Source: Geotalea uraniireducens Rf4
GTDB taxonomy: Bacteria; Desulfobacterota; Desulfuromonadia; Geobacterales; Geobacteraceae
Direction of reading: 5' to 3'
Assembly (NCBI RefSeq): GCF_000016745.1
Contig: NC_009483.1
Span: 450,001-482,000, forward strand
Length of the DNA: 32,000 bases
Part shown: one piece after another, positions 1,350 through 20,373 of the stretch
Numbering within the stretch: position 1 is the first letter of the stretch
Layout of the letters: every line of letters starts with the position of its first letter
The notes under the pieces: generated by a model
What the model saw: only the letters and a program-made list of their open reading frames with translations
What the model was told of the DNA's origin: nothing
The model's database searches: none
Translations under genes and position numbers: made by a program

Positions 1350-1441
1350 TTTGTGGAGATTACACCAATTATATACCCTGCTCTCCGGCTGGCAATAGCG
1401 GCATCCGCCGACGAAGGTAAAAAGGATGTCCTGCACAGCGA

Positions 1442-1475
1442 TAAAAAGTCCCCGCCAAAAGGCGCGGGGACTTTG
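1442..1475 (-). terminator. rho-independent terminator downstream of the subtilase gene
   Basis: The minus strand reads GACAAAGTCCCCGCGCC-TTTT-GGCGGGGACTTTTTATC: a GC-rich stem followed by a T-run, about 55 nt after the stop at 1529. Confidence 0.6.
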
Positions 1476-1528
1476 TCAGTCCGGCTCGGTTTAATGGTCG
1501 CCTCCATATGTAATACATCCGGGACAGG

Positions 1529-4500: not shown

Positions 4501-6709
4501 TATTCGGGGCGGATTCGGTGAGGACGACCGTCTCCCCGGACGATTCTGCAGTGCTGACAACGAGTATCGGCACCTGCTCCACCTTGGTCGGATCACTGTT
4601 CAGATCACGGTCGGCTATCTGTATCTGGAGAGTGCTGCTGGAATTGTACCTCTGCCTGTCGAGGCTGATCGTTCCCCGGGATGTTACCCCCGAAGCCCCG
4701 GTGATGGCGAGGGCAAAGGGTTGTGGAGCGTAGGGAACGTTGTAGCCTGTGACGGAGACCGTGTATATTCCGGGAACCGGTGCCTGGACCAGGACCTGCT
4801 CCTCGACGTTGAGCCGATCAGGAGTGCCGCCGGCAAACGATTCGCCGTTGGTAAAGGCATTTCCCGTCAGAACCGTTCCGTCGGGGGTACTCACCGCCAG
4901 GTCGAGGTCGTTAACTATTGCTTTTACCGCGCCGATGGTCCCTGGGTAGTCGGTCCAGACCAGGGTTACCTTGAAGGGCTGCCCGCCCGGCACCAGGAAC
5001 TGCCTGCTCCAGTTCTTGTCCGTCCCAAGTCCGCCCCCCTCGTCCACCACTGCAAGTCTCCCGGCCTCCCCGGCAAAGGGGAGCGCGTTGGCGAGATTGA
5101 TCCTTCCCCAACCCTGGCCGGTGGCGGGGATCGGGCCACCGGTGCCGGTTCCGGTCATGTTCTGGGCGCTGTTGACAACCACCGCCTTGACCAGGGCGGC
5201 CGAAGGGGTGAACGCATTGATCGGGGTGGCGATGCCCAAGGGGTGGAAGCCGTCGATGAAATACTGACGGACCAGCGCAGCAGCTCCGGCTACGGCCGGC
5301 GTGGCCATGGATGTGCCGCTCATGCCGAGCGTGCCGTTGTTGGAACTGTCTTTCAAGCCGTCAGAATCGGCGGAGATGATGCCATAGCCGGGTGCGGTCA
5401 CCGTCGGCTTGATCCGACCGTCAGCGGTTGGGCCGTTACTGCTGAACGAAGCCATGTTCTCGGCACTGCTGCCGTTATAGGTGGCACCGACGCTGATGAC
5501 ATTCTTGGCGGTCGCCGGGTTGCCGACCGTGGATAACCCCGGCCCGGCGTTGCCGTTGGCGAACAAAGCAAGGAATTCCTTGTGTTCCCACAGGAAGCGG
5601 TCGGCGCTCGCCGCGAAGGAACTGTAGGACCCGTCGTCGTTTCCCCAGCTGTTAGTGTGGAAACGAGCCCCGACGTTGTAAGCGGCAGTGAACATGAGCC
5701 CCAGGTCATCGGGGGGATAGACTGCGTTGCTTCCTCCCGGCGTCAGATCCTGTATGAAAACCCGGGCCTTGGGCGCCATGCCGTTGGCATTGGAGAGTCC
5801 GTCCACCGGCGTGCGGTCGCCTGCCACCGTGTCCGTAACGTGAGTCCCGTGGCCCGGGGTGCTGGCATCGTAGTCGTCGCCGTAGGTCGTGTCGTAGCCG
5901 ACAATCTTCCGGTGCCCCGTGCCGATCGGCGCCCCGGCCGGGTCACGGAACCATGGCATGTCGTAGTCGAGCCCGGTATCGCCGATACCTATGATCTGGC
6001 CCTCGCCGTGGATCTTCTGGTCCCATATCTCCGTGTTATCGGGGATGTCGGTCTGGATCACCCAACGCGTCGTATCATTGAAAAGCTGCATGTCGAAGTG
6101 CTCGTCAATCCAGCTTACTTCCTCGATAGCCGCAAGCTTTGCAATGGACGTTGTGTCGACAGCCACCCGGAGTGTATCGCGGCCCACGTCGAGAACATCT
6201 CCCTCCATCTGCTGCACCACGGCCAGCACGTCGCGCACGTTGGCAGGGTCATCGAGCCTCAGGTGGATCCTGATCTTCTCGCCCGATGGCCGGGCAGTCG
6301 CCTTCTCCCGGAGCTTTTCGCGAAGCTTGTGGGCCGGTTTGAAACGGACCACTCCCTCGATGTACGGAAGTTTCTTCACGGCTTTTTTCGCAGTGTCATC
6401 CATGGTTGCCAGAAAGGCAAAATCGGGGAGGTAATCGAGAAGCCGGCACCCCAGCTCCTCCACTTTCGCTTTTTCCTCCTCGTGAATCGGCCCGGTAAAC
6501 TGGACGACCCACTTGCGTCGGCCCTTGTCCACTCTGGGTTCCAGGATCTCCGGCACCGCCGGTTCCTTCCCCTTCACGTCTATGACAATCCCATTGATCT
6601 GCACCTTGTGCTTCGAAAACTCTTTCGCCCAGGCTGGGCTTCCTCCCAGATACAGCAGAACGATGAAGAAGACCGATAGCGAGGCGCATCTCTTGATCTG
6701 GCCGCACAT
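1529..6709 (-). CDS. Secreted multidomain subtilisin-family (S8) serine protease, 1726 aa: signal peptide, propeptide-like domains, S8 catalytic domain, beta-sandwich, Fn3/Ig-like and CARDB-like domains, then 7 tandem Fn3-like repeats
   Basis: Catalytic motifs GIGDTGLD (Asp), HGTHVTDTVAG (His), NSWG (Asn) and GTSMATPAVAG (Ser). The likely start is the ATG at 6709 (MCGQIKRCASLSVFFIVLLYLGGSPAWA signal peptide), preceded by GGAAGGAGG. The longest ORF extends to 6772. Confidence 0.9.
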   Translation of the reverse strand: MCGQIKRCASLSVFFIVLLYLGGSPAWAKEFSKHKVQINGIVIDVKGKEPAVPEILEPRVDKGRRKWVVQFTGPIHEEEKAKVEELGCRLLDYLPDFAFLATMDDTAKKAVKKLPYIEGVVRFKPAHKLREKLREKATARPSGEKIRIHLRLDDPANVRDVLAVVQQMEGDVLDVGRDTLRVAVDTTSIAKLAAIEEVSWIDEHFDMQLFNDTTRWVIQTDIPDNTEIWDQKIHGEGQIIGIGDTGLDYDMPWFRDPAGAPIGTGHRKIVGYDTTYGDDYDASTPGHGTHVTDTVAGDRTPVDGLSNANGMAPKARVFIQDLTPGGSNAVYPPDDLGLMFTAAYNVGARFHTNSWGNDDGSYSSFAASADRFLWEHKEFLALFANGNAGPGLSTVGNPATAKNVISVGATYNGSSAENMASFSSNGPTADGRIKPTVTAPGYGIISADSDGLKDSSNNGTLGMSGTSMATPAVAGAAALVRQYFIDGFHPLGIATPINAFTPSAALVKAVVVNSAQNMTGTGTGGPIPATGQGWGRINLANALPFAGEAGRLAVVDEGGGLGTDKNWSRQFLVPGGQPFKVTLVWTDYPGTIGAVKAIVNDLDLAVSTPDGTVLTGNAFTNGESFAGGTPDRLNVEEQVLVQAPVPGIYTVSVTGYNVPYAPQPFALAITGASGVTSRGTISLDRQRYNSSSTLQIQIADRDLNSDPTKVEQVPILVVSTAESSGETVVLTESAPNIAIFSGSIPIAAAPVVPGDGRLQGADGDTITAIYHDANDGSGKSATVTAAAFVDNVPPAISNLAVTGITDTAATITWTTNEPANSVLNYGDTPAMGGVSADKKLATEHSMRLTALLEAATYHVAAKSTDEAGNTAGSSAILFTTLNLPPSLTVTSSEGSTTYQPSTVITGVCTDPSGVSSVTINGTVANYRPSDGYYSLPVALQVGDNGFTVAATDTLGKTTSLTITVTRLQPSDLFVQSVAGPPSAVQGSTITITDTVCNGGPGDATGFSVGFYLSSDQNLSSDDMLIGSRNVASIAAGTCPSGTTRAPIPPTAPGGSLYLIACADYTNRLVETNKNNNTLAGNQITLPNPQLAPPSSINVPAGNTTGSFQVSWSPSNVSGVTYVLEYSKDNGAYTSAYNGTYTWANLTVPASGTYTFRVKAAKTGYTDSAYSATRSCSVTLICGAPASISVPSGNTTGSFQVSWSPSNVSGVTYVLEYSKDNGAYTSAYNGTYTWANLTVPASGTYTFRVKAAKTGYTDSAYSATKSCSVTLICGAPASISVPSGNTTGSFQVSWSPSNVSGVTYVLEYSKDNGAYTSAYKGTYTWANLTVPASGTYTFRVKAAKTGYTDSAYSATKSCSVILICGAPASISVPSGNTTGSFQVSWSPSNVSGVTYVLEYSKDNGAYTSAYNGTYTWANLTVPASGTYTFRVKAAKTGYTDSAYSATKSCSVTLICGAPASISVPSGNTTGSFQVSWSPSNVSGVTYVLEYSKDNGAYTSAYSGTYTWANLTVPASGTYTFRVKAAKTGYTDSAYSATKSCSVTLICGAPASISVPSGNTTGSFQVSWSPSNVSGVTYVLEYSKDNGAYTSAYKGTYTWANLTVPASGTYTFRVKAAKTGYTDSAYSATKSCSVTLICGAPASISVPASSTTGSFQVSWSRSNVSGVTYVLEYSKDNGAYTSAFRGPYTWANLTVPARGTYTFRVKATKTGYADSAWKVSSSIVVNRK
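1532..3442 (-). repeat. 7 x 273-bp (91-aa) near-identical in-frame tandem repeats inside the protease gene
   Basis: The landmark GCAGATCAAT recurs at 1802, 2075, 2348, 2621, 2894 and 3167, an exact 273-nt period. Protein units read GAPASISVPSGNTTGSFQVSWSPSNVSGVTYVLEYSKDNGAYTSAY[N/K/S]GTYTWANLTVPASGTYTFRVKAAKTGYTDSAYSATKSCSVTLIC. Confidence 0.95.
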
Positions 6710-6922
6710 GGCATCCTCCTTCCTGGTTGAGGTTCGTTGCGATGGCCGATTACCGGAGACCTTCTCCGGCAATCGATGACATTCCTTCTCCTGGCACTAT
6801 TTGGATCGATCGCTTCTCGTGTGCTTTTTTCCGGCAAGCTCAAAGGTCTCTCCCCTTGTCTGATTAGTTGTTTTAAATAAAAACTTTGCAATACAACCTT
6901 TAAAGCATTTCAGGGGGAGGGC

Positions 6923-7247
6923 AATACGCTGTCCGGCGTATTTTAGGGGAGTATTTTATCGGGGAGGAAATGCGCTTTTCAAACGAGGGACAATTCCTGC
7001 GGGAGAGCCAAGTCGCCGCGATCGGGACCTGTTAGCGGCTCATGTCGACATATTGGCGGGATCGTGCGTTTTTCTGCCCACGATCTCCCGCCACTACGCA
7101 TATTTAACTGATAGAATCCAGCAATGAGGCATGCGGCTGCTGCCCTCTGCCATGGTTATTATCTAATTTAGATGGATGCTCGATTGTGTGCAATACGCAG
7201 AATGGTGTAAAAATGTGCGTATTTTAGATTACATGACTACGTATTTT
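6923..7247. promoter_or_regulatory. cluster of AATACGC/GCGTATT inverted repeats and CGTATTTT(A/G)G direct repeats in the AT-richer region upstream of the protease gene
   Basis: AATACGC-N6-GCGTATT at 6923-6942 and AATACGCA-N16-TGCGTATT at 7192-7223. CGTATTTTAG-like copies sit at about 6937, 7218 and 7240. Confidence 0.4.
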
Positions 7248-7361
7248 GGAGTTTGAGGAGTCTTTGACGCTTCAGAAGAACGTTCTGCTGACCATTAAAG
7301 GCCGGTTTGGTCAGCGGGTGAAGGGAGGAGTACTGGCTATGGCGGGGTGCCCTGCATGCGA

Positions 7362-9020: not shown

Positions 9021-9050
9021 ACTATTGTAATACCTACTATTGTAATACCT
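9021..9050. repeat. perfect 15-nt tandem direct repeat (ACTATTGTAATACCT x2) in a divergent intergenic region
   Basis: Read directly at 9021-9035 and 9036-9050. It lies between riboswitch 2 (-) and the sensor kinase gene (+). Confidence 0.8.
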
Positions 9051-9211
9051 GTCGCGCATATGATGCATTCATGTCATTGGTCGGCCACCCAAAAAACCGG
9101 CTATCAATATTGACAGGGCCGGAGAAACCGGTATGCTCGACTCAATCAATTTCGCCCGTTTTGTGCCTTAATTTTACCTATCCCCTAACCCTGATAAACA
9201 GGTCCCGTTCA

Positions 9212-11334
9212 ATGGATGCAAGTGACTATCAGAAAATCCGGCAACTGTTTGACGACTACCTGCGGATGTATTCATCCCGCGATGATCGGCTCACCACGTA
9301 TTTCAGCGAGGACTTTTCCGGCTTTACCGGAGGCGGGGATTTTCTGGTCAAAGACAGGGAAGAATGGGTCGCGATTACCCGCCAGGACTTCGCCAAGGTC
9401 AAAGATCCGATCCATATCGAACTCAAGGACCTGGCCATCCAGTCACTGGCCGATACGATCGCCGTCGCGACCAGCTTCTTCACCATTCACCTGCCGATCG
9501 AAGACCACATCCTGTCACGAGAGACAGCCCGCCTGGTGCTGATTTTCCGCAAGGAATCCGCGGGCTGGAAAATCTCGCACAGCAGTATTTCCATTCCCTA
9601 CTACCTGGTTCGTGAAGGCGAAGTCTATCCCATGAAGGAACTGGTGGAGCGTAACCAGTACCTGGAAGAGCTGGTCGCCGAACGGACGATTCAGCTTTCC
9701 GAGGCAAACGATAAGCTGTTAAGAACAAATGAAGAACTGGCGAGAGAGATTGCAGGGCACAAGCAGGCCGAGGAGGCGCTGCGGCAGAGCGAGACCTACT
9801 ACCGACTGTTGACAGAGGATGCATCCGATGTGGTCTGGAAGATAGACAGCGATTATCGTTTCACCTATATCAGCCCGGCGGACGAGCGCCTGCGCGGCTA
9901 CAGGGCCGAGGAAGTGATCGGCCACCATGTTTTCGAAATCTTTGACGAAGAAGGGATCGCATCTCTCAAGAAAACAGCCCTACAGCGGCAGGAGGCCGAA
10001 CAGAACGGAACGGAACGCGGACAGGCACCTTAACCTTCGAAGCACAGCACCGCTGCAAGGACGGCAGATGGTTATGGGCGGAAATAAACTCAACTCCCGA
10101 GCGTGACGCGTACGGCAAAATTACCGGGTACCACGGTATAACCAGGGAAATAACCGAACGCAAGGAGCGCGAAAAAGAACTGCTGAAAATCGAACAGCTG
10201 GAATCCCTGGGTGCCCTCGCCGGAGGCATTGCCCACGATTTCAACAACATACTGACCGGAATCATGGGAAACGTATCCTTTGCGCAGATGTTCCTGGATG
10301 CCAGCCACAAGTCGTATAAGCCACTGGCTGAAGCCGAAAAAGCATCGGTAAGGGCCGGAGAACTCGCCCATCAACTCCTGACCTTTGCCCGCGGTGGCGA
10401 ACCGGTCAAGAAACTGGTTTCACTCCTGCAGCTTGTGAATGAAACCGTCTCGCTTGTTCTGAGTGGCTCAAACGTCAAGGGAACTATCGAAATCCCCGAC
10501 TCGATCCACGCCATCGAAGCGGACGAAGGGCAGATGAGCCAGGTATTCCACAACATCATCATCAACGCCACGCAGGCGATGCCGGATGGCGGGACTCTGA
10601 CCGTCACCGCACGGAACGCGTCTCTGGACAGTGCAAACACCATGAACCTTCCGGGCGGCAGATATGTCAGGCTGTCATTCGCCGATCAGGGGTGCGGGAT
10701 ACCGGATGGTGATCTGAATAAGGTATTCAACCCCTACTTCACGACCAAGTCGTCTGGAAGCGGGCTTGGGCTCGCTTCGGCCCACTCGATAGTAAACAGG
10801 CATGGCGGCCATATCGGCGTCAGTTCAGTACCGGGTAAAGGTACAACCTTCACAATCCATCTGCCATCAATCGGCGAGACATATTCTACACATCAAACCG
10901 ACTCTGTCGCGCAGTCTGCCGATGCTCATACGGGCGGTTCCATTCTTGTCATGGATGACGAGGAGTTTATCCGGGATATAACGACTGAAATGTTGGAATA
11001 TCTGGGATATCAGGCGACAGCATGTGAGAATGGCGCAGAGGCAATAGTGCAATATAAAGCTGCAAGGGAATCAGGGGTGCCCTTTTCTGCAGTTATCATG
11101 GATCTGACCATACCGGGAGGCATGGGAGGAAAGGAGGCAGCACAGCAGATTCTGGACATCGATCCGAAGGCGTGCCTGATTGTGTCCAGCGGCTATTCAA
11201 ATGATCCGGTCATGGCTGACTACAGTGCCTATGGTTTCAATGGTGCGATAGCGAAGCCTTACAACATGACGGAATTCGGGCAACTGCTGAGCTCGAAGTT
11301 GTCTACGCGACAGGCTCCTGGACAACGAATCTGA
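9212..11334 (+). pseudogene. Hybrid sensor histidine kinase (NTF2/SnoaL-like domain, coiled coil, PAS, HisKA, HATPase_c, receiver), interrupted by a frameshift at about 10003-10030
   Basis: The N-terminal piece is ORF 9071..10033, with probable start MDASDYQKIRQLF at 9212. The PAS continuation TGTLTFEAQHRCKDGRWLWAEINSTPERDAYGKITGYHGITREITERK and the H-box GIAHDFNNILTGIMGNV read in a different frame, into ORF 10264..11334. Also present: N box HNIIINATQAM, G boxes DQGCGI and GSGLGLA, and receiver ILVMDDEE...VIMDLTIPG. Confidence 0.8.
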
Positions 11335-11403
11335 TCATTATCTCCAGCGGTTTTGGAGATGTGTGACGTGGGGCTATTCGTGTCGATGGGGATGCGTTCG
11401 GTT

Positions 11404-11817
11404 TCATTTGCGAAAAACGATCCGGCTGACGTCGCTCGCCGAGATCCGGTAGGCTCCTACCCCCGTATCGCCGTAAAAGACGGCGCTTTTGTTCACCTTG
11501 AGCTGGAGGCGGCTCCCCGATTTTAGCAGCAGGTCGGCCGGTGCCTCGTTGCCGCTCACCGGGCCGAAGCTTAGTTCCTTAAGGTCGCGGAAGAAAACGC
11601 TCATGCGCCCTTCCCCCCGTTGCCCTTCGAAAAAGACATTGCCGTCCATGGAAAACCGGCTCAAGTCGGTCGTCACTCCCGAGCGGTCGATAATCTGAGC
11701 CTTGATGTTCTCTTCCGTTTTGGGGACCGTCCCCTCCGGGGTGCCGCCCAGGCTACCCATGCCCATCAGCATGATGGCGGTCAGCAGGACCAGAACGACA
11801 GTCAGTGCGCCTCGCAT
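11404..11817 (-). CDS. hypothetical secreted protein
   Basis: ORF 11404..11841. The ATG at 11817 (MRGALTVVLVLLTAIMLMGMGSLGG signal-like N-terminus) is preceded by AAAGGAGAGAAGGT. Confidence 0.7.
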   Translation of the reverse strand: MRGALTVVLVLLTAIMLMGMGSLGGTPEGTVPKTEENIKAQIIDRSGVTTDLSRFSMDGNVFFEGQRGEGRMSVFFRDLKELSFGPVSGNEAPADLLLKSGSRLQLKVNKSAVFYGDTGVGAYRISASDVSRIVFRK

Positions 11818-12111
11818 ACCTTCTCTCCTTTTCGTCGGCATATACCATATAGAATAGCACCGGAGGGGGCGATGTAAACCGGTGCTGACGAAAATCCCGC
11901 GGCGCCGCTTGCAACGTCGGCAAAATAATCGGCATTATAATCGGCAGGCTTGTTACAAAACGGACTTTATTTTGATAGATAATGCCTTATGTGATAGATA
12001 GTTATGCATGATATTGATGCTTTATTAACATAGGCAGAAGTTGGGACATCCGACCCTCAAGCCGGAGGCTGCCTACATGTTTCAGGAGGCCCTGCTGCGG
12101 CGCAGGGTGAC

Positions 12112-12250
12112 ATGATTCGGGTTTCCGGAATGGCTGAGCGGGCCGGCCGGATGCTGTTTGCCAAGTTGCTGGACGAGGGGCTGTTGGTTTCACGTATGCC
12201 GAAGGGGCCGGTAAGGCTGGCATTTCCGACCCATGTGGCCGGATACCTTA
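12112..12250 (+). pseudogene. possible remnant of a Fic-family gene C-terminus (winged-helix-like tail)
   Basis: The translation ...GMAERAGRMLFAKLLDEGLLVSRMPKGPVRLAFPTHVAGYL resembles, from memory, the C-terminal tail of Fic/DOC proteins. No Fic core lies upstream, and the adjacent flank (11930-12050) is AT-rich. Confidence 0.2.
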
Positions 12251-13402
12251 AATCGACAGAAATCCGTTTGGAGCAAGACTGGTGGCGAGCATCACCATGT
12301 TGATCTCCCGGTGTTCCCGCCATGTTTCGGTCTCCCTGTTTCTCCACTCCAGCCAGAAACCCTCGATTTCCTCCGCAAGCGACAGGTACCCCGCGAGCGC
12401 TTCGATCTTCCGTAGCAGTGGGTTTTCCAGATTCTTCTCCGACCAACCTCGTAGCGGCACAATCACCTTCAGCCCGATCGAGAGCCCCAGCTCGCGGAAG
12501 GCCAGACGGTATGCGGCAGGATATTTGAGGGGATTGCCCTCCGCGAAGGCCTGCAACCCTGCCAGGGCCGCATCGACAATGGACTCCAAAAGGGACGTGT
12601 CCCTGAAGCCCCCCATGTCCGTCAGCTGCGCGATCCGCCATGCGTCCCACAAAAGGCCGCCGATACCGAGCGGATCGTCCGTTGACCATTCCTTCCCCCG
12701 GCAGATGGCGGCCATATCGGCGATCTCGGCCTTGAGATCGAACTGGAGCGACAGGCCGGGCGCTGCGGCCGAGGCCTGCAGCTCGCAGTAGGTGACGTAG
12801 CCGTCGAGGGGGTCGTGCTGCCCCATGGAGGGGACGAGTGGCCGGCTGAGGTCGATGCTCATTTTCCAGTACATCCGCTTTGCTCCACTCCGGGAAGCAG
12901 GGACGAAGGCGGCATGCGCCGTCTGCGCCAGTTCCATGGCCCACCCGGCGTAGGTCGCAACACCGGTGACCCGGCTCATGCGGCTAAGCGCATGCATCCA
13001 TTTGGTCAGGTAGTGGAAGTACTGCCCGTCCTGTTCCCATTCCAGAGGCTCGTCGGGTGGCTCGCCGGGCCCGCGTTCGTTCAGCCTCTTGCCGATCCGC
13101 AGGCCGCCGCGGGTCGGGTGCGATTCCCCCTCGGCTTCGTCCAGTCCGCTGATCCAGCCGTTGCGGGGATCGTCGCTGCGGTGGCGGCCGAGGATGTGAT
13201 GTACCTGGTCCACGAGACGGAGGGCGAGATCCAGCCACTCCCCGTCATTGGTCTGGCGGAACAGCTCCAGCAGGTTGCAGAGGGCGAAGGCATCCGTCCA
13301 GAGATAACGCCGCGGTGTTTTCCCTGGGGGGGAAACCCCGGTGAGAGCCGCATAGTCCAGCATGATCCCACGGACCTCTGCAATGGAGTTCTTTGGTTCC
13401 AT
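12248..13402 (-). CDS. conserved hypothetical protein (384 aa), function not recognised
   Basis: ORF 12248..13483. The ATG at 13402 (MEPKNSIAEVRG) is preceded by GGAGAA. It is a long ORF with ordinary residue composition. The overlapping ORFs 12057..12944 and 12815..13723 look like shadow frames. Confidence 0.75.
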   Translation of the reverse strand: MEPKNSIAEVRGIMLDYAALTGVSPPGKTPRRYLWTDAFALCNLLELFRQTNDGEWLDLALRLVDQVHHILGRHRSDDPRNGWISGLDEAEGESHPTRGGLRIGKRLNERGPGEPPDEPLEWEQDGQYFHYLTKWMHALSRMSRVTGVATYAGWAMELAQTAHAAFVPASRSGAKRMYWKMSIDLSRPLVPSMGQHDPLDGYVTYCELQASAAAPGLSLQFDLKAEIADMAAICRGKEWSTDDPLGIGGLLWDAWRIAQLTDMGGFRDTSLLESIVDAALAGLQAFAEGNPLKYPAAYRLAFRELGLSIGLKVIVPLRGWSEKNLENPLLRKIEALAGYLSLAEEIEGFWLEWRNRETETWREHREINMVMLATSLAPNGFLSI

Positions 13403-13723
13403 GTTATTTTCTCCACGGCCGTCTTCTCTGTTCGGAGGCATCGGGACGATCCACGCACCCCGGAAACGCAAACGGCCGCACATACCGAAGGTTCTCCTTC
13501 GGCAGTCCGGCCGTCTTCCACTGCGAAGACCCGCGACTTTCCGCCCCCTTCTTGCGGAGGGTTCGGCTTTATCGTGAGGCGAATTAGAAAATATTACAAT
13601 ATAGTGGCAATTGTATCGCCGCCCCTCCCGCTGTCAAGGTTGCATTTCCCGCGCAGATGCACGAGCGCGTGGGGTTGCGGTACTGCCGGGAATGGTCACC
13701 GAATTCTGGGAACAGCATACTAA

Positions 13724-14395
13724 TTATTGCTCCAACAACTTCCGGGCCAAACTGTGTAATTCTGAATTTGCCAGCGCAACCACTTTTTTCTTAACCGAAC
13801 GGGAATAATACTCCTGTTCGGTCTTTGTCAGAGGGAGGCCTTCGAGTTTCTTCTTGAACAATTCTTTCTGTTTCGGCGAAAACACCTGCGACAGTGCATA
13901 GGCTAGAGAAAATTCTTCGTACTTTTCTTTGCGCCGCCTGGTCTTATCTACGTTCTGTTCAAAATAGAGTTCAAACAATCCTTTCAGTCGTTCCGGGTCG
14001 AGCTTTACATCGTCCCAGGCTAGTGCTTGATTGTGAGCAAGGCAGTTTCTCCATTTTTTAACCAGTGATTTGTCTTCGCTGGAGAGGTTTTTCTTAAGCT
14101 TGCTCGACCATGTAAATGTCAGGTGATAGAACGAATACAGAGACGAGGACAAAAGCAATAGCCGGTGGAAGTGATCTTTGTCTTCCCTGCCAGGCAACAG
14201 TTGCTCAACCAGTTCAGGTGCAAACTGATAGCTGTCAGCGGCATTAGCCAGCAACACAGGGAATCCTTCCCAAAGTCGGGTGTCTTGGCTCTTCACAACC
14301 TCCGCTAAAGTTTCATTGACATTCAGTTCTTCACTCGGTTCAAACATCGGAAATCCGAGCTTCGATAGGCTCTTCATAAGTTTCTCGTCAGTCAT
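13724..14395 (-). CDS. HEPN-motif protein (223 aa), second gene of the NTase/HEPN pair
   Basis: KKW-RNCLAH-NQ (nt 14033-14050) is an Rx4H motif of the RNxxAH kind seen in HepT/DUF86. The composition looks all-helical. Its ATG at 14395 overlaps the upstream gene end as TTATGACTGA (8-nt overlap). The longest ORF reaches 14422. Confidence 0.65.
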   Translation of the reverse strand: MTDEKLMKSLSKLGFPMFEPSEELNVNETLAEVVKSQDTRLWEGFPVLLANAADSYQFAPELVEQLLPGREDKDHFHRLLLLSSSLYSFYHLTFTWSSKLKKNLSSEDKSLVKKWRNCLAHNQALAWDDVKLDPERLKGLFELYFEQNVDKTRRRKEKYEEFSLAYALSQVFSPKQKELFKKKLEGLPLTKTEQEYYSRSVKKKVVALANSELHSLARKLLEQ

Positions 14396-14993
14396 AAAGG
14401 CCTTTCTCCCGCAGTAACTCAATGAAGTGCTGAATGTGTGGTTTCAGCCGGTCTTCTGCAATGTCATAGCTGACCATTTCATAGAAGTGTTCGACAAGCC
14501 TATCTATGTTAATATGTGCTATGCGGGCTTCAGCCAGGCTCAGACAATCCTCAAAATCAACCCTGGTTCCACGCATCAACTTGCTGGAAATCAGATCATA
14601 CTCGTTCAAAATGCCAATATACAGGGATGAGTATTCCTTGAAGACTGTATGCCTTCCTTTTTCCAGCGGAGATGCCAGCAACCCCGTCGTGTGAATGGAA
14701 TTTCCGCGAAAGATGTCGAACTGGAATATTTCACCGGAGCGTTTCCAGCCGGAACCGGTCATTGCTTCATAGCCCAATACCCTTAGCTGTTTCGTCAGGT
14801 ACTCATACTCTTGTATGTTGGGGGTCATGAAATCGACGTCTTTTGTCGATGGCTTGACTCCCAGCAATGTCATGGCAGTTCCACCGCAAGCAATCAGGTG
14901 AACTTTACGCTTGAGGAAGCGGTTCCATTCTTCCAGAATGTCAAGAAGCTGGTTTTTGTCTAGCCTATATATCATTTGTACCTTATCATACAA
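14388..14993 (-). CDS. Pol-beta-fold nucleotidyltransferase, AbiEii/DUF6036-like (195-201 aa)
   Basis: LIACGGTAMTLLGVKPSTKDVDFM fits the hG[GS]-x13-DxD motif (nt 14832-14885). A further acidic site is at FQFDIF, and the helical tail contains YDLISSKLMRGTRVDFEDC. The start is either the TTG at 14993 or the ATG at 14975, which is preceded by AAGG. Confidence 0.7.
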   Translation of the reverse strand: MYDKVQMIYRLDKNQLLDILEEWNRFLKRKVHLIACGGTAMTLLGVKPSTKDVDFMTPNIQEYEYLTKQLRVLGYEAMTGSGWKRSGEIFQFDIFRGNSIHTTGLLASPLEKGRHTVFKEYSSLYIGILNEYDLISSKLMRGTRVDFEDCLSLAEARIAHINIDRLVEHFYEMVSYDIAEDRLKPHIQHFIELLREKGLYD

Positions 14994-15055
14994 TAAATTG
15001 TATTGATTTATACAAGCTATTGTATATTTTTATACAAAATAGGTAGTTTTGTCAA
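14988..15055 (-). promoter_or_regulatory. sigma70-type promoter with overlapping palindromic operator-like sites for the NTase/HEPN operon
   Basis: The minus strand reads TTGACA (15055-15050), a 15-17 nt spacer, then TATAAAAAT. Palindromes are TATACAA-GCTA-TTGTATA (15009-15026) and ATACAAT-AA-ATTGTAT (14988-15003), with an extra TATACAA half-site at 15031-15037. Confidence 0.45.
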
Positions 15056-15147
15056 GGGATGTGTTGTTTCACCTTTGAAGGACTTGGAGAACGCTACCCT
15101 GTCAGGCTTTGCAATTGATGATTTGCCACAAGAGCTTTGATCCGGAT

Positions 15148-15774
15148 TCAAGCCTTCCAAACAAAGAAAACGGTTATCCCCAGTAAGCCATACAAAAAAA
15201 GGCTTTTCCAGTTAAATGCCACTTTAAGGTCTTGCGCTGAAGGCAACGATTCGTACAGCAAAAGGAAAACGACAAAATAGAGGCCCAAGATCGAGCCGAG
15301 GCTCGGCGCAAACCATTTGTTCCAATGTCGATACACCATAAAGGCGACTGCCACCAACAGCAAAGGCGCCAGGCCGATTGGCAGTGAATTGATGGCGTTC
15401 AGCTTTCTGAATCGGACCGAACCCATTACCCATTTGCCGTTACCGTCTGATTTCGGAAAAAGAGAAAAGCCGGTGGGGCTTGCAAAAAGGAGCAGCCCAA
15501 CGAGAAGATGACAGATTTCGTGCAGGACCACCCCGATGAAATTCCAGATGCCTATGATGAAGATCCCGCATTCACGGCTTCTGTGATTCAGTGTTATTAA
15601 AAGAAGAACGAGGAGGATGCCACAGAAGTGAAAAAATGAAAGCGAGTTGAATACATGCATGAGCAATAGATTATAGCATTTACCGTCATGGGGCAACTGT
15701 AGAATAGCTTCCTGCCTGACAATGCGCTTCACGGGGTTGCCGTTTTTTCTTACCTCTGGTATATATAGGCTCAA
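15148..15774 (-). CDS. polytopic membrane protein with an intramembrane HExxH motif (DUF3267/zincin-like putative metalloprotease)
   Basis: About 5 hydrophobic segments. VVLHEICHLLVG (HEICH at nt 15508-15522) sits inside a predicted TM helix. The gene is low-GC. The start is uncertain: TTG at 15774 or ATG at 15660. Confidence 0.6.
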   Translation of the reverse strand: MSLYIPEVRKNGNPVKRIVRQEAILQLPHDGKCYNLLLMHVFNSLSFFHFCGILLVLLLITLNHRSRECGIFIIGIWNFIGVVLHEICHLLVGLLLFASPTGFSLFPKSDGNGKWVMGSVRFRKLNAINSLPIGLAPLLLVAVAFMVYRHWNKWFAPSLGSILGLYFVVFLLLYESLPSAQDLKVAFNWKSLFLYGLLGITVFFVWKA

Positions 15775-15780
15775 GACGAA

Positions 15781-15819
15781 GGGCTAAGGACACAAGGTGG
15801 AACCTTGCGTCGTTAGCCC
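15781..15819. other. strong hairpin at the islet / gltB boundary
   Basis: GGGCTAAGGACACAAGG-TGGAA-CCTTGCGTCGTTAGCCC pairs at 15 of 17 positions. It lies between the divergent starts at 15774 (-) and 15850 (+). Confidence 0.5.
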
Positions 15820-15849
15820 TTACTATTTGCCCGAACTGCGGAGAGCCCC

Positions 15850-18800
15850 GTGAAAAATCAAGACGTTGATCCTTCAGGCCTGATGCCGGTTGAAAGAGAT
15901 GCCTGTGCCATTATCTGTTACATAAACAAGGCGGCGCAGCCGACCCACGGCAACCTGCAGCGCACCATCGATGCGCTGGTCAAGATGGGGCACCGGGCGG
16001 GCGAGATCAACGGTGAGGGTGACGGCTGCGGCGTGCTGACCGACATCCCGCGCCTTCTCTGGCGGGAGATACTGGCCGGGACCGAACATCCTCCCGTGCT
16101 TGCCGACGCCCCGGGCTTTGCCGTCGGCCATCTGCTCATTCCGAAAAATGAGCTGGAGACCGACCCTGCGCTCCAGGAGAAAATCATCCGTCGTATCAGC
16201 GACGCCGGCATCCGCCTCCTTGTGGAACGCCCCGGCCCGGTGCGGAGCATGGTCCTTTCGGCCAACGCGCGCCAGGGGGAACCGCTCTTCTGGCAGATAG
16301 CCCTCCTCTGCCCTGAACCGGCCAAGGCACCGGAACTGCTCTTCGATCTCCAGGTGGCCATAGAGGAGGACTTCCCGGTCCATGTGGCCTCCCTTTCCAC
16401 GGACGTGGCCGCCTACAAGGTCCACGGGGCGCCGGAACTCCTCCCCCGCTATTATCCCGAATTGAAACGTCGCGAGTTCCTCTCCAGCATCACCATCGGC
16501 CATAGCCGCTACTCGACCAACACCCTGCCGACGGTTTTGCGCGCCCAGCCCTTTTCCCTTCTCGGCCACAACGGCGAGATCAACACCATCGCCCGCCTCC
16601 GCGAAGAGGCTCGGATGCTGGGCATTGTCCTCCCCTCCGGGGGGAGCGATTCCCAGGACCTCAACCGGACCCTGGAAGGTCTCATGTTCCGCTACGGTCT
16701 CACCCTGTTCGAGGCGATGGAAATGGTCTTTCCCCCCATCTTCAGCGAGATGGAGCGGATGTCTCCGGAACTGCAATCCATGTACGACTGGTTCCGCCGT
16801 TTCCTTACCGCCTCGGCTCAAGGGCCGGCGGCGATCATCGCCCGGCACCGGCGCCAGTGCGTCTTCAGCGTCGACGCCATGGGGCTTCGGCCGCTCTGGT
16901 TCGGCGAGACAGAGAAGGAGCTGTTCGTCTCCTCCGAACTGGGGGTCGTCCCCCACGAGGAAATCCTTGCGGACCCGAAGCCGCTCGCCCCGGGGGAAAA
17001 GATAGGCATCATGGTCGCGGCCGGTAAAAGCGTCCAGGTGCTCGACCACAGCCAGTTGCGCCAGGATATCTACGGTCGGTTTCGCAAGCGGACCAATTTG
17101 ACGGCCCATGCCCGGTCCCTTGCCCGGGGAGATAGCCTGGGAGAGGCTGAACCCTCACGGGAGTGGGGAAAGAGCCGCAAGCTCCTGCTGGAAAATCTCA
17201 TGTCCGCCCTGGCCTGGAAAAGCACCGATGTGCAGAGCCTGAGGGAAATGGCCAGGAGCGGCCAGGACCCGATCGCCTCCCTCGGCTACGACGGGCCGCT
17301 GGCGGCGCTCTCCCTCTCCCGGCAGAACCTCTCCGATTACTTCAAGGAGCAGGTGGCGGTGGTGACCAATCCGGCCATCGACCGCGAGCGGGAGTCGGAA
17401 CACTTCTCCATCCGCGTTTACCTCGGCTCCCGCCCCTCCCTTTCCGGCCCGGTCGCGGCCGGGGTCGAGCTCGCCGTCCCCCTCCTGCCCGGCGGGCGGC
17501 GTGGCGACGGGGTCGGGTCCGATACCGACCTTGCCCGGGAGTTCGGCACCTGTACCATCGAAGCGCTCATGGGGCGCTTCAGGGGGAGGGGGAGCCGCCT
17601 CATCTCCTCTGTCATGCAGAAGGGCGAATCGATCCACGAGGCCCTGCAACGCCTGACGGGTGAAGCGGTGTCCGCGGCGCGGAACGGCGCACGGCTCCTC
17701 ATCCTCGACGACGGCGCAGCCTTCGGCCCGGGAAAGAGCTTTCTCGACCCCTACCTGGTGGTGGCGGTCCTGCACAAGGCGCTCAAGGAGGAAACCGCGG
17801 CAAGCGGCGAGTCACTGCGCCGGCGCGTCTCGCTGGTGGTGCGTTCCGGGGCCTTGCGCAACCTCCACGACCTGATCTTCGCCCTCGGCATGGGGGCCGA
17901 CGCACTCTGCCCCTACCTGATGTGGGAGCTGGCCGAAGCAGAGGGGAATGGCGTCAGAAACCTCCTCTCGGTCCTCGTCAAGGGGCTGGAAAAGGTCATC
18001 TCCACCATGGGGACCCACGAAATAGGGGGGTACGGCAAGTACTTCGCCTCCATCGGCCTCTGCCGGCACCTGGCGGAGATCTTCGAAACCCCCAATTTCT
18101 GCGGCTCCGGCCAGGGGGGATTGACCCTCGTCCGTCTCGAGGAGGAGAACCGCGGCCGGAGCAGCGTGGCGAGGAGTCGGGAAAAACAGCCGGTGCCGGT
18201 CCAGTTCCGCCTCTATCCGCGCATCTGGAAAATGGTGAGCGCCGTGGCGAAGATGGAGGAGACCTATGCCGACCTGTCGCGCCTGATCCGCCAGCTGGAG
18301 GGGGAAAATCCCCTGGCCATCCGCCATCTCATCGACTTCCGCTTCCAGGAAGAACTCACTGTCGACCCGGAAGAGGTGGATACAACGGTCGGCGGACACG
18401 ATCTCCCCATCCTCTTCTCGGCCATGAGCTTCGGTTCCCAGGGGGAGACGCCGTTCCGCATCTATGCCGAGGCTGCCCGCCGTCTCAACATCGTCTGCAT
18501 GAACGGCGAGGGGGGCGAGATTGCCGACATGCTCGGCCGGTACCGGCAGAACCGCGGCCAGCAGATCGCTTCCGGTCGTTTCGGCGTCAACATGGAGTTC
18601 CTCAATTCGGCAAACATCCTTGAGATCAAGGTGGGGCAGGGGGCGAAGCCGGGAGAGGGGGGGCACCTCCCCGGATTCAAGGTGACGGAGAAGATAGCCG
18701 CCGCCCGCCACGCCACACCGGGAGTGAGCCTCATCTCCCCCTCCAACAACCATGACATCTATTCCATCGAAGACCTGGCCCAGATCATCGAGGAGCTCCG

Positions 18801-20373
18801 CACCGCCAATCCCCAGGCGCGCATCTCGGTCAAGGTCCCGGCCGTGGCGGGCATCGCCACCATTGCCCTCGGCATCGCCAAGGCCGGGGCGGACATCATC
18901 ACCATCAGCGGCTATGACGGCGGAACCGGCGCGGCGCGGCGGCACGCCATCAAGTTCGTCGGACTTCCCGCCGAAATCGGCGTAGCCGAGGCGCACCGGG
19001 CGCTGGTTGCGGCCGGCATGCGGCACAAGGTGGAGATCTGGGCGGACGGTGGGGCGCGCACCGGCCGCGACGTGCTGAAGCTCATGCTCCTCGGCGCCAA
19101 CCGGGTCGGCTTTGGCACCATGGCCATGGTCATCATCGGCTGCACCGTTTGCCGCGGCTGTCATCTCGGCACCTGCCATGTGGGGATCGCCTCCCAGATC
19201 GAAACAACAGCGGAGGCCGAAGCAAAGGGGCTCAAGCGCTTCGTGCCGCGGGTGCTGGAAAACGGCGTCATCTACGAAACCACTTTTTTCCGCGGCATGG
19301 CGCGGGAGATCCGCATCCTTACCGCCAAGCTCGGTTTCAAGCGGACCCAGGACCTGGTCGGCCGGGCCGACCTCCTCTTCCAGGACCGCGGCCTTGATCA
19401 GTTGGATCTGACCGACCTGTTGGCGCCCGCCAGGAGCGGCGAAGCGGGCCGGGTGGAGAGCAAGGTGCGCATCATCCGCAAACCGCTCAACTACCTCACC
19501 TCGCTTATCTCCAACCTGGTCAGCGAAGCCTTTGCCGAAGGGGAGGAGCGGGTGCGCTACGATGACAGCGACGCTTCCAGCTCGGACCGGGCCATCGGCA
19601 CCCATCTGGCGGGAGCCATGGTGCGCGGCCTTCAGGATGGGCGGTTGAGTGGCGAGGAAAAGGCGCTGCTCCATTTCCAGCGCGATTCGATTCCCGGCAA
19701 CGGTCTGGCTGCCTTCAATATTCCGCACATCAACATCCGCGTCGAAGGCGGGGCCCAGGACGGGGTAGGGAAGTCGGCCCGCGGCGGCAAAATCGTCATC
19801 CTCAAGGGGGAAAACCGGAACGGCGTGCGGGTGGGTGGTTCTGTGGGGAAGGGGCTCGCCTACGGCGCCCAGGGGGGCTCTTTCATCGTCCAGGGGGATG
19901 CCGACAGCCGCGCCTGCATCCGCCTTTCCGGCGCGGACGTGGTGCTGGGGGGGCGGATACTCACTCCCTTGGACGATTCCTGCGGCAACATGGCGGGACG
20001 CGCCAATCTCAAGGGGTTCGCCTTTGAATACATGACCGCCGGCCGGGTCGTGGTTCTCGGCGATCCCGGTCCCTGGATCTGTTCCGGCATGACCGGCGGA
20101 ACGGTCTACTGCCATCTGGACACCGGGATGGGAATGACCCGCGAAGCCCTGCGCCGCCGCATCGCCAGGGGGGCCGGGGTGGAGATCCGCGACCTGGAAG
20201 AGGAGGACGTCGCAAGCATCGAGGAGCTTCTACTCCCCTATCACCGGGAGCTTCTCCACTCCCACCAGGAAGAGGAGGCAGACCGGGTGGGAAATATCAT
20301 CGCCGCCTGCCGCAACAGGTTCGTCAAGATCGTTCCCGAAAAGGTCGTCCTCTCGCCGAAGAGTACGGAGTAG
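15850..20373 (+). CDS. gltB: glutamate synthase large subunit (GltB-type: class-II amidotransferase, central, FMN and GXGXG domains)
   Basis: 1507 aa with a GTG start. Motifs: GHSRYSTNT, GHNGEINT, KVGQGAKPGEGGHLPG, ISGYDGGTGA, the cysteine cluster CTVCRGCHLGTC, and a C-terminal GGAQDGVGKSARGGKIVI repeat domain. No gltD-like gene is adjacent in this window. Confidence 0.9.
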   Translation: MKNQDVDPSGLMPVERDACAIICYINKAAQPTHGNLQRTIDALVKMGHRAGEINGEGDGCGVLTDIPRLLWREILAGTEHPPVLADAPGFAVGHLLIPKNELETDPALQEKIIRRISDAGIRLLVERPGPVRSMVLSANARQGEPLFWQIALLCPEPAKAPELLFDLQVAIEEDFPVHVASLSTDVAAYKVHGAPELLPRYYPELKRREFLSSITIGHSRYSTNTLPTVLRAQPFSLLGHNGEINTIARLREEARMLGIVLPSGGSDSQDLNRTLEGLMFRYGLTLFEAMEMVFPPIFSEMERMSPELQSMYDWFRRFLTASAQGPAAIIARHRRQCVFSVDAMGLRPLWFGETEKELFVSSELGVVPHEEILADPKPLAPGEKIGIMVAAGKSVQVLDHSQLRQDIYGRFRKRTNLTAHARSLARGDSLGEAEPSREWGKSRKLLLENLMSALAWKSTDVQSLREMARSGQDPIASLGYDGPLAALSLSRQNLSDYFKEQVAVVTNPAIDRERESEHFSIRVYLGSRPSLSGPVAAGVELAVPLLPGGRRGDGVGSDTDLAREFGTCTIEALMGRFRGRGSRLISSVMQKGESIHEALQRLTGEAVSAARNGARLLILDDGAAFGPGKSFLDPYLVVAVLHKALKEETAASGESLRRRVSLVVRSGALRNLHDLIFALGMGADALCPYLMWELAEAEGNGVRNLLSVLVKGLEKVISTMGTHEIGGYGKYFASIGLCRHLAEIFETPNFCGSGQGGLTLVRLEEENRGRSSVARSREKQPVPVQFRLYPRIWKMVSAVAKMEETYADLSRLIRQLEGENPLAIRHLIDFRFQEELTVDPEEVDTTVGGHDLPILFSAMSFGSQGETPFRIYAEAARRLNIVCMNGEGGEIADMLGRYRQNRGQQIASGRFGVNMEFLNSANILEIKVGQGAKPGEGGHLPGFKVTEKIAAARHATPGVSLISPSNNHDIYSIEDLAQIIEELRTANPQARISVKVPAVAGIATIALGIAKAGADIITISGYDGGTGAARRHAIKFVGLPAEIGVAEAHRALVAAGMRHKVEIWADGGARTGRDVLKLMLLGANRVGFGTMAMVIIGCTVCRGCHLGTCHVGIASQIETTAEAEAKGLKRFVPRVLENGVIYETTFFRGMAREIRILTAKLGFKRTQDLVGRADLLFQDRGLDQLDLTDLLAPARSGEAGRVESKVRIIRKPLNYLTSLISNLVSEAFAEGEERVRYDDSDASSSDRAIGTHLAGAMVRGLQDGRLSGEEKALLHFQRDSIPGNGLAAFNIPHINIRVEGGAQDGVGKSARGGKIVILKGENRNGVRVGGSVGKGLAYGAQGGSFIVQGDADSRACIRLSGADVVLGGRILTPLDDSCGNMAGRANLKGFAFEYMTAGRVVVLGDPGPWICSGMTGGTVYCHLDTGMGMTREALRRRIARGAGVEIRDLEEEDVASIEELLLPYHRELLHSHQEEEADRVGNIIAACRNRFVKIVPEKVVLSPKSTE

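Follow-up and report, generated by a model that had tools for sequence, protein, structure and literature searches.

Gene Content and Base Composition of the Locus

We analyzed a 32,000-nucleotide stretch of the Geotalea uraniireducens Rf4 genome (NC_009483.1, positions 450,001 to 482,000; hereafter, the window), in which a patch of low GC content lies next to gltB. The patch holds three open reading frames (ORFs), all on the minus strand (13724-14395, 14388-14975 and 15148-15774), which encode a 223-amino acid (aa) protein referred to here as the partner, a nucleotidyltransferase and a membrane protein, respectively. An original prediction, made from the letters of the window, had correctly listed these three genes and had regarded them, together with a hairpin ahead of gltB, as one horizontally acquired islet wedged between core metabolic genes. 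The element that entered this site is smaller, namely a cassette consisting of the nucleotidyltransferase and partner genes with their control region. The features of the locus are listed in Table 1.

Table 1. Coordinates of the features at the locus, as positions in the window.
Feature	Position	Strand	Description
Inserted cassette	13643..15139	-	1,497 bp (one TTG copy counted): promoter, operators, two genes, 81-nt 3' tail; absent from L165/L005, present in L170
Nucleotidyltransferase gene, proposed toxin	14388..14975	-	195 aa, Pfam DUF6036 (PF19502)
Partner gene, proposed antitoxin/autorepressor	13724..14395	-	223 aa, all-helical, contains RNCLAH
Sigma-70-like promoter of the cassette	15026..15055	-	TTGACA, 18 nt, AAAAAT; consensus scan, 10/12 matches
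Three 18-bp palindromes, putative operators	14976..15037	-	TTGTAT-N6-ATACAA at 15020-15037, 14998-15015 and 14976-14993
Resident membrane protein gene	15148..15660	-	170 aa, HExxH (HEICH) and PSxQD; ORF reaches 15774, conserved start MHVFNS at 15660
Resident hairpin	15779..15821		Arms 15779-15798 and 15802-15821; 28 nt upstream of the gltB GTG start
Left gene promoter	13610..13637	-	TTGACA, 16 nt, TACAAT; consensus scan, 11/12; conserved in L005, L165 and L170
c-di-GMP-I-GGC-type riboswitch in the left-gene leader	13497..13576	-	Rfam RF03167, 68.2 bits vs gathering 59, E 2.3e-15, model positions 1-80, full length

The predicted drop in GC content is real. The GC content of positions 13590-15820 was 45.9%, as compared with 62.7% for the ORF to the left (12248-13483) and 65.0% for gltB (15850-20373). 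In a sliding profile this was the lowest-GC 2.2-kb stretch of the window (mean 57.7%, standard deviation 4.0%), with a minimum of 45.5% at 13701, and the patch lay about 2.9 standard deviations under the mean. Two of the values cited earlier for single 60-nt lines were reproduced (40.0% at 14041-14100 and 65.0% at 13201-13260), while the line at 15001-15060 was computed as 23.3% rather than about 28%. The GC content at third codon positions (GC3) was 53-57% in the three low-GC genes, as compared with 77% in the left gene and 83% in gltB; the two cassette genes by themselves had a GC content of 45.7% and a GC3 of 53-55%. No tRNA gene was found in the 32-kb window, no integrase-like ORF was detected in the low-GC region, either in the ORF list or by a Pfam scan, and the insertion contained no transposase. 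None of the three low-GC genes or the left neighbor matched an NCBIfam model. Several metagenome contigs were 100% identical to the window and hence offered no variation for comparison.

Empty and Filled Sites Delimit a Two-Gene Insertion

The locus was compared in three relatives, that is, L005 (a contig of a metagenome-assembled genome of Geobacter sp., found by scanning species-representative genomes with the protein of the left gene), L165 (found by look-up of the closest homolog of the membrane protein) and L170, and two further contigs carrying the membrane gene, L166 and L168, were included. At the amino acid level, L005 was 88%, 92% and 78% identical to the window in the left gene, gltB and the membrane gene, respectively. 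The nucleotide identity to the window was about 95% in L165, with 97.8% amino acid identity in gltB, and 92.8% in L170. We found that L005 and L165 carry gltB, the hairpin, the membrane gene and the left gene, and that neither of them has the nucleotidyltransferase or the partner. In BLASTN alignments, the match to L005 broke at window positions 13640 and 15139, the ends lying one base apart in L005, and the empty site of L165 placed the breakpoints at 13642 and 15137, with a 3-nt TTG at both junctions. L170 is filled, with the two cassette genes at exactly the same junction as in the window. Because of these empty and filled sites, the inserted segment is delimited to 13643-15139, with two genes and not three. 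This 1,497-bp two-gene cassette is a horizontal insertion with exact borders. The resident membrane-protease-like gene flanks it on one side, and on the other it stops 5 nt upstream of the -35 box of the strong promoter that serves the riboswitch-controlled left gene.

Local alignment of 100-nt junction pieces, evaluated against shuffled sequence, gave no significant direct or inverted repeats, and neither a target duplication longer than 3 nt nor terminal inverted repeats were present at the cassette ends. The original prediction had likewise seen no integrase, tRNA or obvious direct repeats, which agrees with the tRNA scan of the window, the ORFs and the junction alignments. MAFFT aligned the right-hand insert end with the left flank, but this similarity was not significant; only the 3-nt TTG is common to the two. 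A classical genomic island was also rejected, as there is no tRNA, the junction repeats are no better than shuffled sequence and the cassette comprises only two genes.

The low GC content is continuous across the stretch and the three genes lie on one strand, as would be expected if they had arrived with the hairpin as one islet. However, relatives lacking the nucleotidyltransferase and the partner have both the membrane gene and the hairpin, and the empty sites refute a three-gene islet. Orthologs of the membrane gene exist in all four close relatives examined (78-94% identity; 93% at the amino acid level in L165), including two without the cassette genes, and the gene occurs without the cassette in other contexts (L166 and L168). 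The hairpin, proposed earlier as the border of the islet, is kept in relatives with and without the insertion. Furthermore, a search of other taxa recovered the two-gene pair in dozens of unrelated contexts, and none of 80 cassette loci (described below) contained a homolog of the membrane gene. The membrane gene and the hairpin are resident and not part of the insertion, the low-GC drop has two separate causes, a resident part and an inserted part, and acquisition of all three genes as one islet is extremely unlikely. Horizontal acquisition as such stands for the nucleotidyltransferase and the partner, on the strength of the empty sites and the unrelated contexts, and falls for the membrane gene. 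In L165 and L005, from which the cassette is absent, the membrane gene lies between the left gene and gltB.

The converse history, in which the site carried the cassette ancestrally and L165 and L005 each lost it by a precise deletion, was weighed against a gain. The flanks of the window, L170 (filled) and L165 (empty) are pairwise about equally identical (93-95%), and therefore do not resolve the branching order of the three, and the 3-nt TTG at both junctions could support a deletion through microhomology. On the other hand, the outgroup L005 is also empty, so that two independent deletions with identical end points would be needed, which is less likely. The GC3 of the cassette is far from that of its host (77-83%), indicating that it is not adapted to the host composition, and the synonymous divergence (dS) between the window and L170 was lower in the cassette (0.09-0.10) than in the flanks (0.14-0.21), which suggests that the cassette is younger than its flanks. 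We therefore regard ancestral presence followed by deletion as very unlikely, and the observations are most simply explained by a single gain common to the lineages of the window and L170. The lower dS of the cassette, a weak piece of evidence from short genes, also hints at a possible spread between lineages by recombination through homologous flanks. The window and L170 have the same junction and share about 97% identity in the cassette genes, but their non-coding 3' tails (13643-13723 in the window and 2124-2230 in L170) were only loosely alignable, with a 19-nt indel. The tail evolves much faster than the other parts of the cassette.

Organization of the Cassette

Read along the minus strand, the cassette consists of about 85 nt of unique sequence, a -35 box, three palindromes, the nucleotidyltransferase gene, the partner gene and the 81-nt tail. 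A TTGACA hexamer is found at the equivalent place in most related loci. The palindromes stand at -62, -40 and -18 from the ATG of the nucleotidyltransferase, with a 22-bp period, and the last of them covers the ribosome-binding site. TTGTAT-N6-ATACAA occurs nowhere else in the 32-kb window, all six strand-wise matches falling in the cassette, and palindromes were present at the same three positions in the upstream regions of 29 of 38 distinct loci. The ATG of the partner overlaps the stop codon of the nucleotidyltransferase (ATGACTGA, 14388-14395), as read from the sequence. The ratios of nonsynonymous to synonymous divergence (dN/dS) between the window and L170 were 0.16 and 0.08 for the two cassette genes, and both are under purifying selection.

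The Nucleotidyltransferase

The upstream protein matched Pfam DUF6036 over residues 15-182 (E 9.4e-7; 29.2 bits, as compared with a gathering cut-off of 23.6), and PF19502 is precomputed for most of its 1,287 database homologs. In 58 homologs, residues G32, T33, S43, T44, K45, D46, D48, D87, K132, R135 and D140 were invariant, giving the pattern GG...S-T-K-D-x-D; D143 was also listed as invariant beside D140. The residues T44-K-D46-V-D48, K132 and D140/D143 resemble the motif residues T39/D41, K137 and D152 of MenT1 (PMC11375011), a likeness of pattern and not a residue-level structural alignment.

An AlphaFold2 model of the protein was obtained with high confidence (pLDDT 94, pTM 0.89). The best Foldseek matches included 4ok0, a putative nucleotidyltransferase of H. 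pylori (JHP933-like). Matches to M. tuberculosis toxins included MenT1 (8an5_B; E 6.3e-5, TM-score 0.59/0.62), MenT4 (6y56; E 7.1e-5) and TglT/MenT3 (6j7q; E 1.7e-3), and the next matches were LnuA (TM-score 0.51/0.61), TM1012 and ANT(2'')-Ia, with E values of 1.6e-4 to 9e-4 and TM-scores of 0.4-0.6. MntA was not among the top 50 matches. The predicted fold of the nucleotidyltransferase is closest to MenT/AbiEii-type toxins.

The Partner

The partner has 2,167 database homologs, the best 120 of which share a length of about 223 aa and show 72-100% identity, and those that are named by their source are called "hypothetical protein". A profile search of 1.84 billion cluster representatives yielded 449 clusters at 50% identity, and nearly all full-length members were stand-alone proteins of 215-245 aa. 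The only Pfam similarity was to HEPN_Swt1 and was sub-threshold (E 0.002; 18.4 bits, as compared with 27.5); the same model matched 21 of 60 members of the family, again sub-threshold, with a best E value of 0.001. The original prediction had called the gene a HEPN-motif gene, a label that we found to be weak. The residues in question, R116 and H121, were both present in 18 of the 40 loci with an intact nucleotidyltransferase and both missing in eight, and their columns were unconserved among 57 diverse representatives. Conservation in the same 57 sequences was instead found in the N-terminus (G14, R40, E43, F45 and P46) and in a basic C-terminus (Q176, K191-E193, E195, Y196, R199, K202 and K203).

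The AlphaFold2 model of the partner was all-helical and of moderate confidence (pLDDT 78.5, pTM 0.56). A Foldseek search of the whole model against PDB and BFVD, to be read with that model confidence in mind, gave nothing with an E value below 0.3 and no HEPN structure, and a PDB sequence-profile search with the partner also found nothing. A helix-turn-helix of the sigma-70 region 4/LuxR type in the C-terminus was considered and remained unsupported: the isolated pieces had no Pfam match, and hhalign gave probabilities of 10% for the LuxR type and 0.2% for sigma region 4, using small reference alignments.

The Cassette in Other Genomes and Its Asymmetric Decay

A search seeded with the partner retrieved 80 metagenomic cassette loci, in which the nucleotidyltransferase, wherever the sequence suffices, always lies directly upstream of the partner and overlaps it. 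The flanks of these loci are mutually unrelated and diverge just after the stop codon of the partner. The GC content of the cassette ranged from 36 to 59%, often tracking that of the host (flanks, about 39-63%), and was sharply under it in some loci (44% vs 60% in L140; 37% vs 56% in L150). In three long contigs, the pair is found among ordinary genes with no integrase. The family ranges across the Thermodesulfobacteriota, and at least one homolog is labelled Planctomycetota. Two of the three long contigs carry further toxin-antitoxin modules at most a few kb away from the cassette (L172, 2710-4238; L174, 1805-3030 and 9957-10528); these were an AbiEi_4/AbiEii pair in one contig and an unrelated, antitoxin-first nucleotidyltransferase pair plus ParE in the other. 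A phage origin of the cassette was rejected, as the viral contig collection held no relatives of it and matches to PHROGs were insignificant. Assignment to a known defense system was rejected as well, since PADLOC gave only weak partial matches, to AbiEii in residues 7-76 of the nucleotidyltransferase (E 0.002) and to Cas13d in the partner (E 7e-4).

The two genes decay unequally. The nucleotidyltransferase was internally deleted in 7-8 independent loci and frameshifted in three, and the ORF of the partner was full length in all of them; two of the deletion loci (L088 and L095) keep both R and H in the partner. No locus of the partner-seeded set combined an intact nucleotidyltransferase with a broken partner. 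The partner remnants observed have no nucleotidyltransferase either, and partner homologs outnumber those of the nucleotidyltransferase. Loss of the nucleotidyltransferase with retention of the partner is the pattern expected if the former is a toxin and the latter its antitoxin.

Fragments of the partner were seen at several further places. In L092-L094 (about 5880-5950), a complete cassette is immediately preceded, ahead of its -35 box, by fragments of the 3' end of a partner gene (...FSPKQKELFKKRL), and in L090 (1629-1781 and 2848-2949) a complete cassette has such fragments on both sides. These arrangements suggest that cassettes stood in tandem, or that older copies were targets of insertion or recombined with each other. 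Solo remnants in L158 and L160-L164 comprise only the last 70-110 codons of the partner, and most solo remnants keep a downstream terminator-like hairpin, AAAGGCGGCCGATTGGCCGCCTTTTGA, which is common to one subgroup of cassettes and absent from the copy in the window.

Resident Genes and Elements around the Insertion

The membrane protein, a possible M50/S2P-like intramembrane metalloprotease, belongs to a rare family with 27 database matches, and H47, E48, H51, P140, S141 and D144 were invariant in 26 of its homologs; similarity to Peptidase_M50B was under the cut-off (19 bits, as compared with 26). The GC content of the gene was 48.7% in L165, 42.3% in L166 and 44.4% in L168, as compared with 57-62% for their contigs, and 56% in L005. 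The low GC content in most relatives may mark an older acquisition. No cassette was found near the membrane gene in L165, L166 and L168, and in the latter two the gene adjoins an AhpC-like gene instead of gltB.

The strong hairpin described in the original prediction exists (-29.2 kcal/mol, z -5.7), and none of 200 shuffled sequences folded as well. It is kept in L165, L005 and L170 with no compensatory changes, and four relatives show no change in its outer stem (AAGGGCTAA / TTAGCCCTT). It had no Rfam match and no T-run, and no covariation was seen among the four close relatives. Since the hairpin is absent upstream of the membrane gene where gltB is not adjacent, and is kept in filled and empty relatives, it belongs to the gltB side and does not mark the border of an islet; it may be a leader element of gltB.

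The left gene (12248-13402) encodes 384 aa. The earlier description of it as a core metabolic gene was not supported, as it had no Pfam or NCBIfam match and is preceded by the predicted riboswitch. An exact-protein look-up of the 384-aa version found nothing, and homologs 57-88% identical occur in at least 577 loci of methanogens, Thermodesulfobacteriota and Nitrospirota. The left gene is a conserved unknown under predicted cyclic-dinucleotide control. Farther from the insertion, positions 1421-7361 and 9035-12246 of the window had no counterpart in L005, the surrounding sequence being alignable. These stretches include a 1,747-aa ORF (1529-6772, minus strand), a histidine-kinase/response-regulator gene (10264-11334) and a 145-aa ORF (11404-11841), and therefore represent further indels between the two genomes.

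Discussion

The cassette is probably, in our moderately confident reading, a mobile toxin-antitoxin-like or abortive-infection module resembling AbiE and MenAT, in which the nucleotidyltransferase would be the toxin and its partner both repressor and antitoxin. Its entry into intergenic space left no signature of an integrase, a tRNA or repeats. The upstream DUF6036 nucleotidyltransferase would be a growth-inhibiting enzyme which, by analogy with MenT, may nucleotidylate an RNA, for example the 3' ends of tRNAs. The translationally coupled 223-aa partner would neutralize it and, alone or in complex, would repress the operon via the three same-face palindromic operators, which overlap the -10 region of the promoter and the ribosome-binding site. 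Toxicity, substrate, the identity of the DNA-binding protein and the mode of neutralization are what we infer here.

Several points weigh against this interpretation. A search seeded with the partner could not find loci from which the partner had been wholly lost, frameshifts in metagenome assemblies can be sequencing errors, and the same decay would be seen for an enzyme that is non-toxic and dispensable. The nucleotidyltransferase had no match to Pfam AbiEii/DUF1814, and a PDB sequence-profile search with it found no MenT. The TM-scores to the MenT structures are moderate (0.5-0.6), with the non-toxins LnuA, TM1012 and ANT(2'') scoring similarly. In addition, the gene of the enzyme comes first in the cassette, not second as in AbiE and MenAT, and no DNA-binding domain was recognized in the partner, whose isolated N- and C-terminal pieces had no Pfam match.

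Two other functions were considered for the pair. The enzyme may be a non-toxic nucleotidyltransferase of the Lnu/ANT type, acting on an antibiotic or a metabolite and accompanied by a repressor, in which case the cassette would spread because it is useful and not because it is addictive. The presence of LnuA, TM1012 and ANT(2'')-Ia among the best fold matches is in keeping with this, the conserved operator array indicates tight transcriptional control, and a dispensable enzyme could likewise be lost often while its regulator persists. However, the strict one-to-one linkage of overlapping, coupled genes in every context, together with very high conservation across hosts, is not readily explained in this way; a bare two-gene insertion with other toxin-antitoxin modules nearby is typical of toxin-antitoxin or defense modules, an orphan repressor with nothing to regulate is not expected to stay intact, and no ligand-binding domain is recognizable in the partner. 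We consider such a resistance-like or metabolic enzyme unlikely. The pair could also be a classical type VII HEPN/MNT system like HepT/MntA, in which the downstream gene would encode an RNase toxin of the HEPN type and the nucleotidyltransferase encoded ahead of it would be the antitoxin, AMPylating the toxin. The order of the overlapping genes, nucleotidyltransferase and then HEPN-like protein, matches MNT-HEPN pairs (PMC7641770), RNCLAH in the partner of the window fits Rx4H, and the sub-threshold HEPN_Swt1 similarity and the weak Cas13d match point the same way. Against this, the R116 and H121 columns are unconserved in the family, the moderately confident model of the partner matches no HEPN structure, and the fold neighbors of the nucleotidyltransferase are MenT-type toxins and not MntA. 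The partner is moreover intact in 10-11 loci whose nucleotidyltransferase is deleted or frameshifted, including the copies with both R and H, and an RNase toxin is disfavored because an unneutralized RNase should not be tolerated in nucleotidyltransferase-deleted loci. A HEPN/MNT system is thus quite improbable, and we prefer the nucleotidyltransferase-toxin module.

What moved at this locus is a 1.5-kb selfish or defense-type cassette, polymorphic among close Geobacter-like relatives, and not a three-gene islet. The event itself is ordinary, a small toxin-antitoxin-like module having been dropped between resident genes, and the empty and filled sites make it a precise example of such a module inserted without recognizable mobility machinery. 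The family is uncharacterized, large and well defined by its invariant catalytic residues, rigid triple operator and asymmetric decay, which makes it a reasonable experimental target. We tentatively propose, as a possibility short of an expectation, that the DUF6036 nucleotidyltransferase and the 223-aa partner constitute an undescribed, widespread toxin-antitoxin or phage-defense family, in which a MenT-like toxin gene comes first, a new type of antitoxin-repressor, for which no relation to AbiEi, MenA or HEPN proteins could be detected, reads a rigid triple-palindrome operator, and the whole moves as a naked 1.5-kb unit without a recombinase. The term "DUF6036" was not found in the literature searched. 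If the enzyme is a MenT-like toxin, the cassette would add a new antitoxin class, a reversed gene order and a clean operator architecture to the nucleotidyltransferase toxin systems.

Among known systems, HepT/MntA (PMC7641770, PMC11586414) shares with the cassette a nucleotidyltransferase gene placed upstream of, and overlapping, a gene for a helical protein, as well as the Rx4H-like motif and weak HEPN_Swt1 similarity of the partner in the window. It differs in that the motif is unconserved in the cassette family, the partner survives loss of the nucleotidyltransferase and the fold neighbors are of the MenT type. We do not class the cassette as a HepT/MntA module, since the defining Rx4-6H motif lacks conservation and the nucleotidyltransferase can be lost. 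Both cassette proteins are also larger than typical MntA and HepT. LnuA, ANT(2'')-Ia and TM1012 are similar to the cassette enzyme in size and predicted fold. To our knowledge, their genes lack the combination of an overlapping, conserved partner gene and a triple operator, and no resistance context was seen around the cassette.

MenAT and AbiE (PMC7450476, PMC10435456, PMC11375011) are two-gene, autoregulated, mobile modules built around a small nucleotidyltransferase, as is proposed for the cassette. The predicted fold of its enzyme is closest to MenT1, MenT4 and MenT3, and the invariant S/T-x-D-x-D, Lys and Asp resemble those of MenT1 in pattern. AbiEi represses its own promoter through inverted repeats (PMC7450476), and some nucleotidyltransferases of the DUF1814 superfamily lie upstream of predicted regulators (PMC11375011). 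The differences are that the cassette enzyme belongs to Pfam DUF6036 and not DUF1814, with no HMM-level similarity to MenT in PDB; that the downstream partner has no similarity to AbiEi/COG5340, the MazE-like MenA1 or COG4861; and that three 18-bp palindromes with a 22-bp period form the putative operator. Taken together, the cassette is most like the AbiE/MenAT nucleotidyltransferase-toxin systems, yet is not a member of them.

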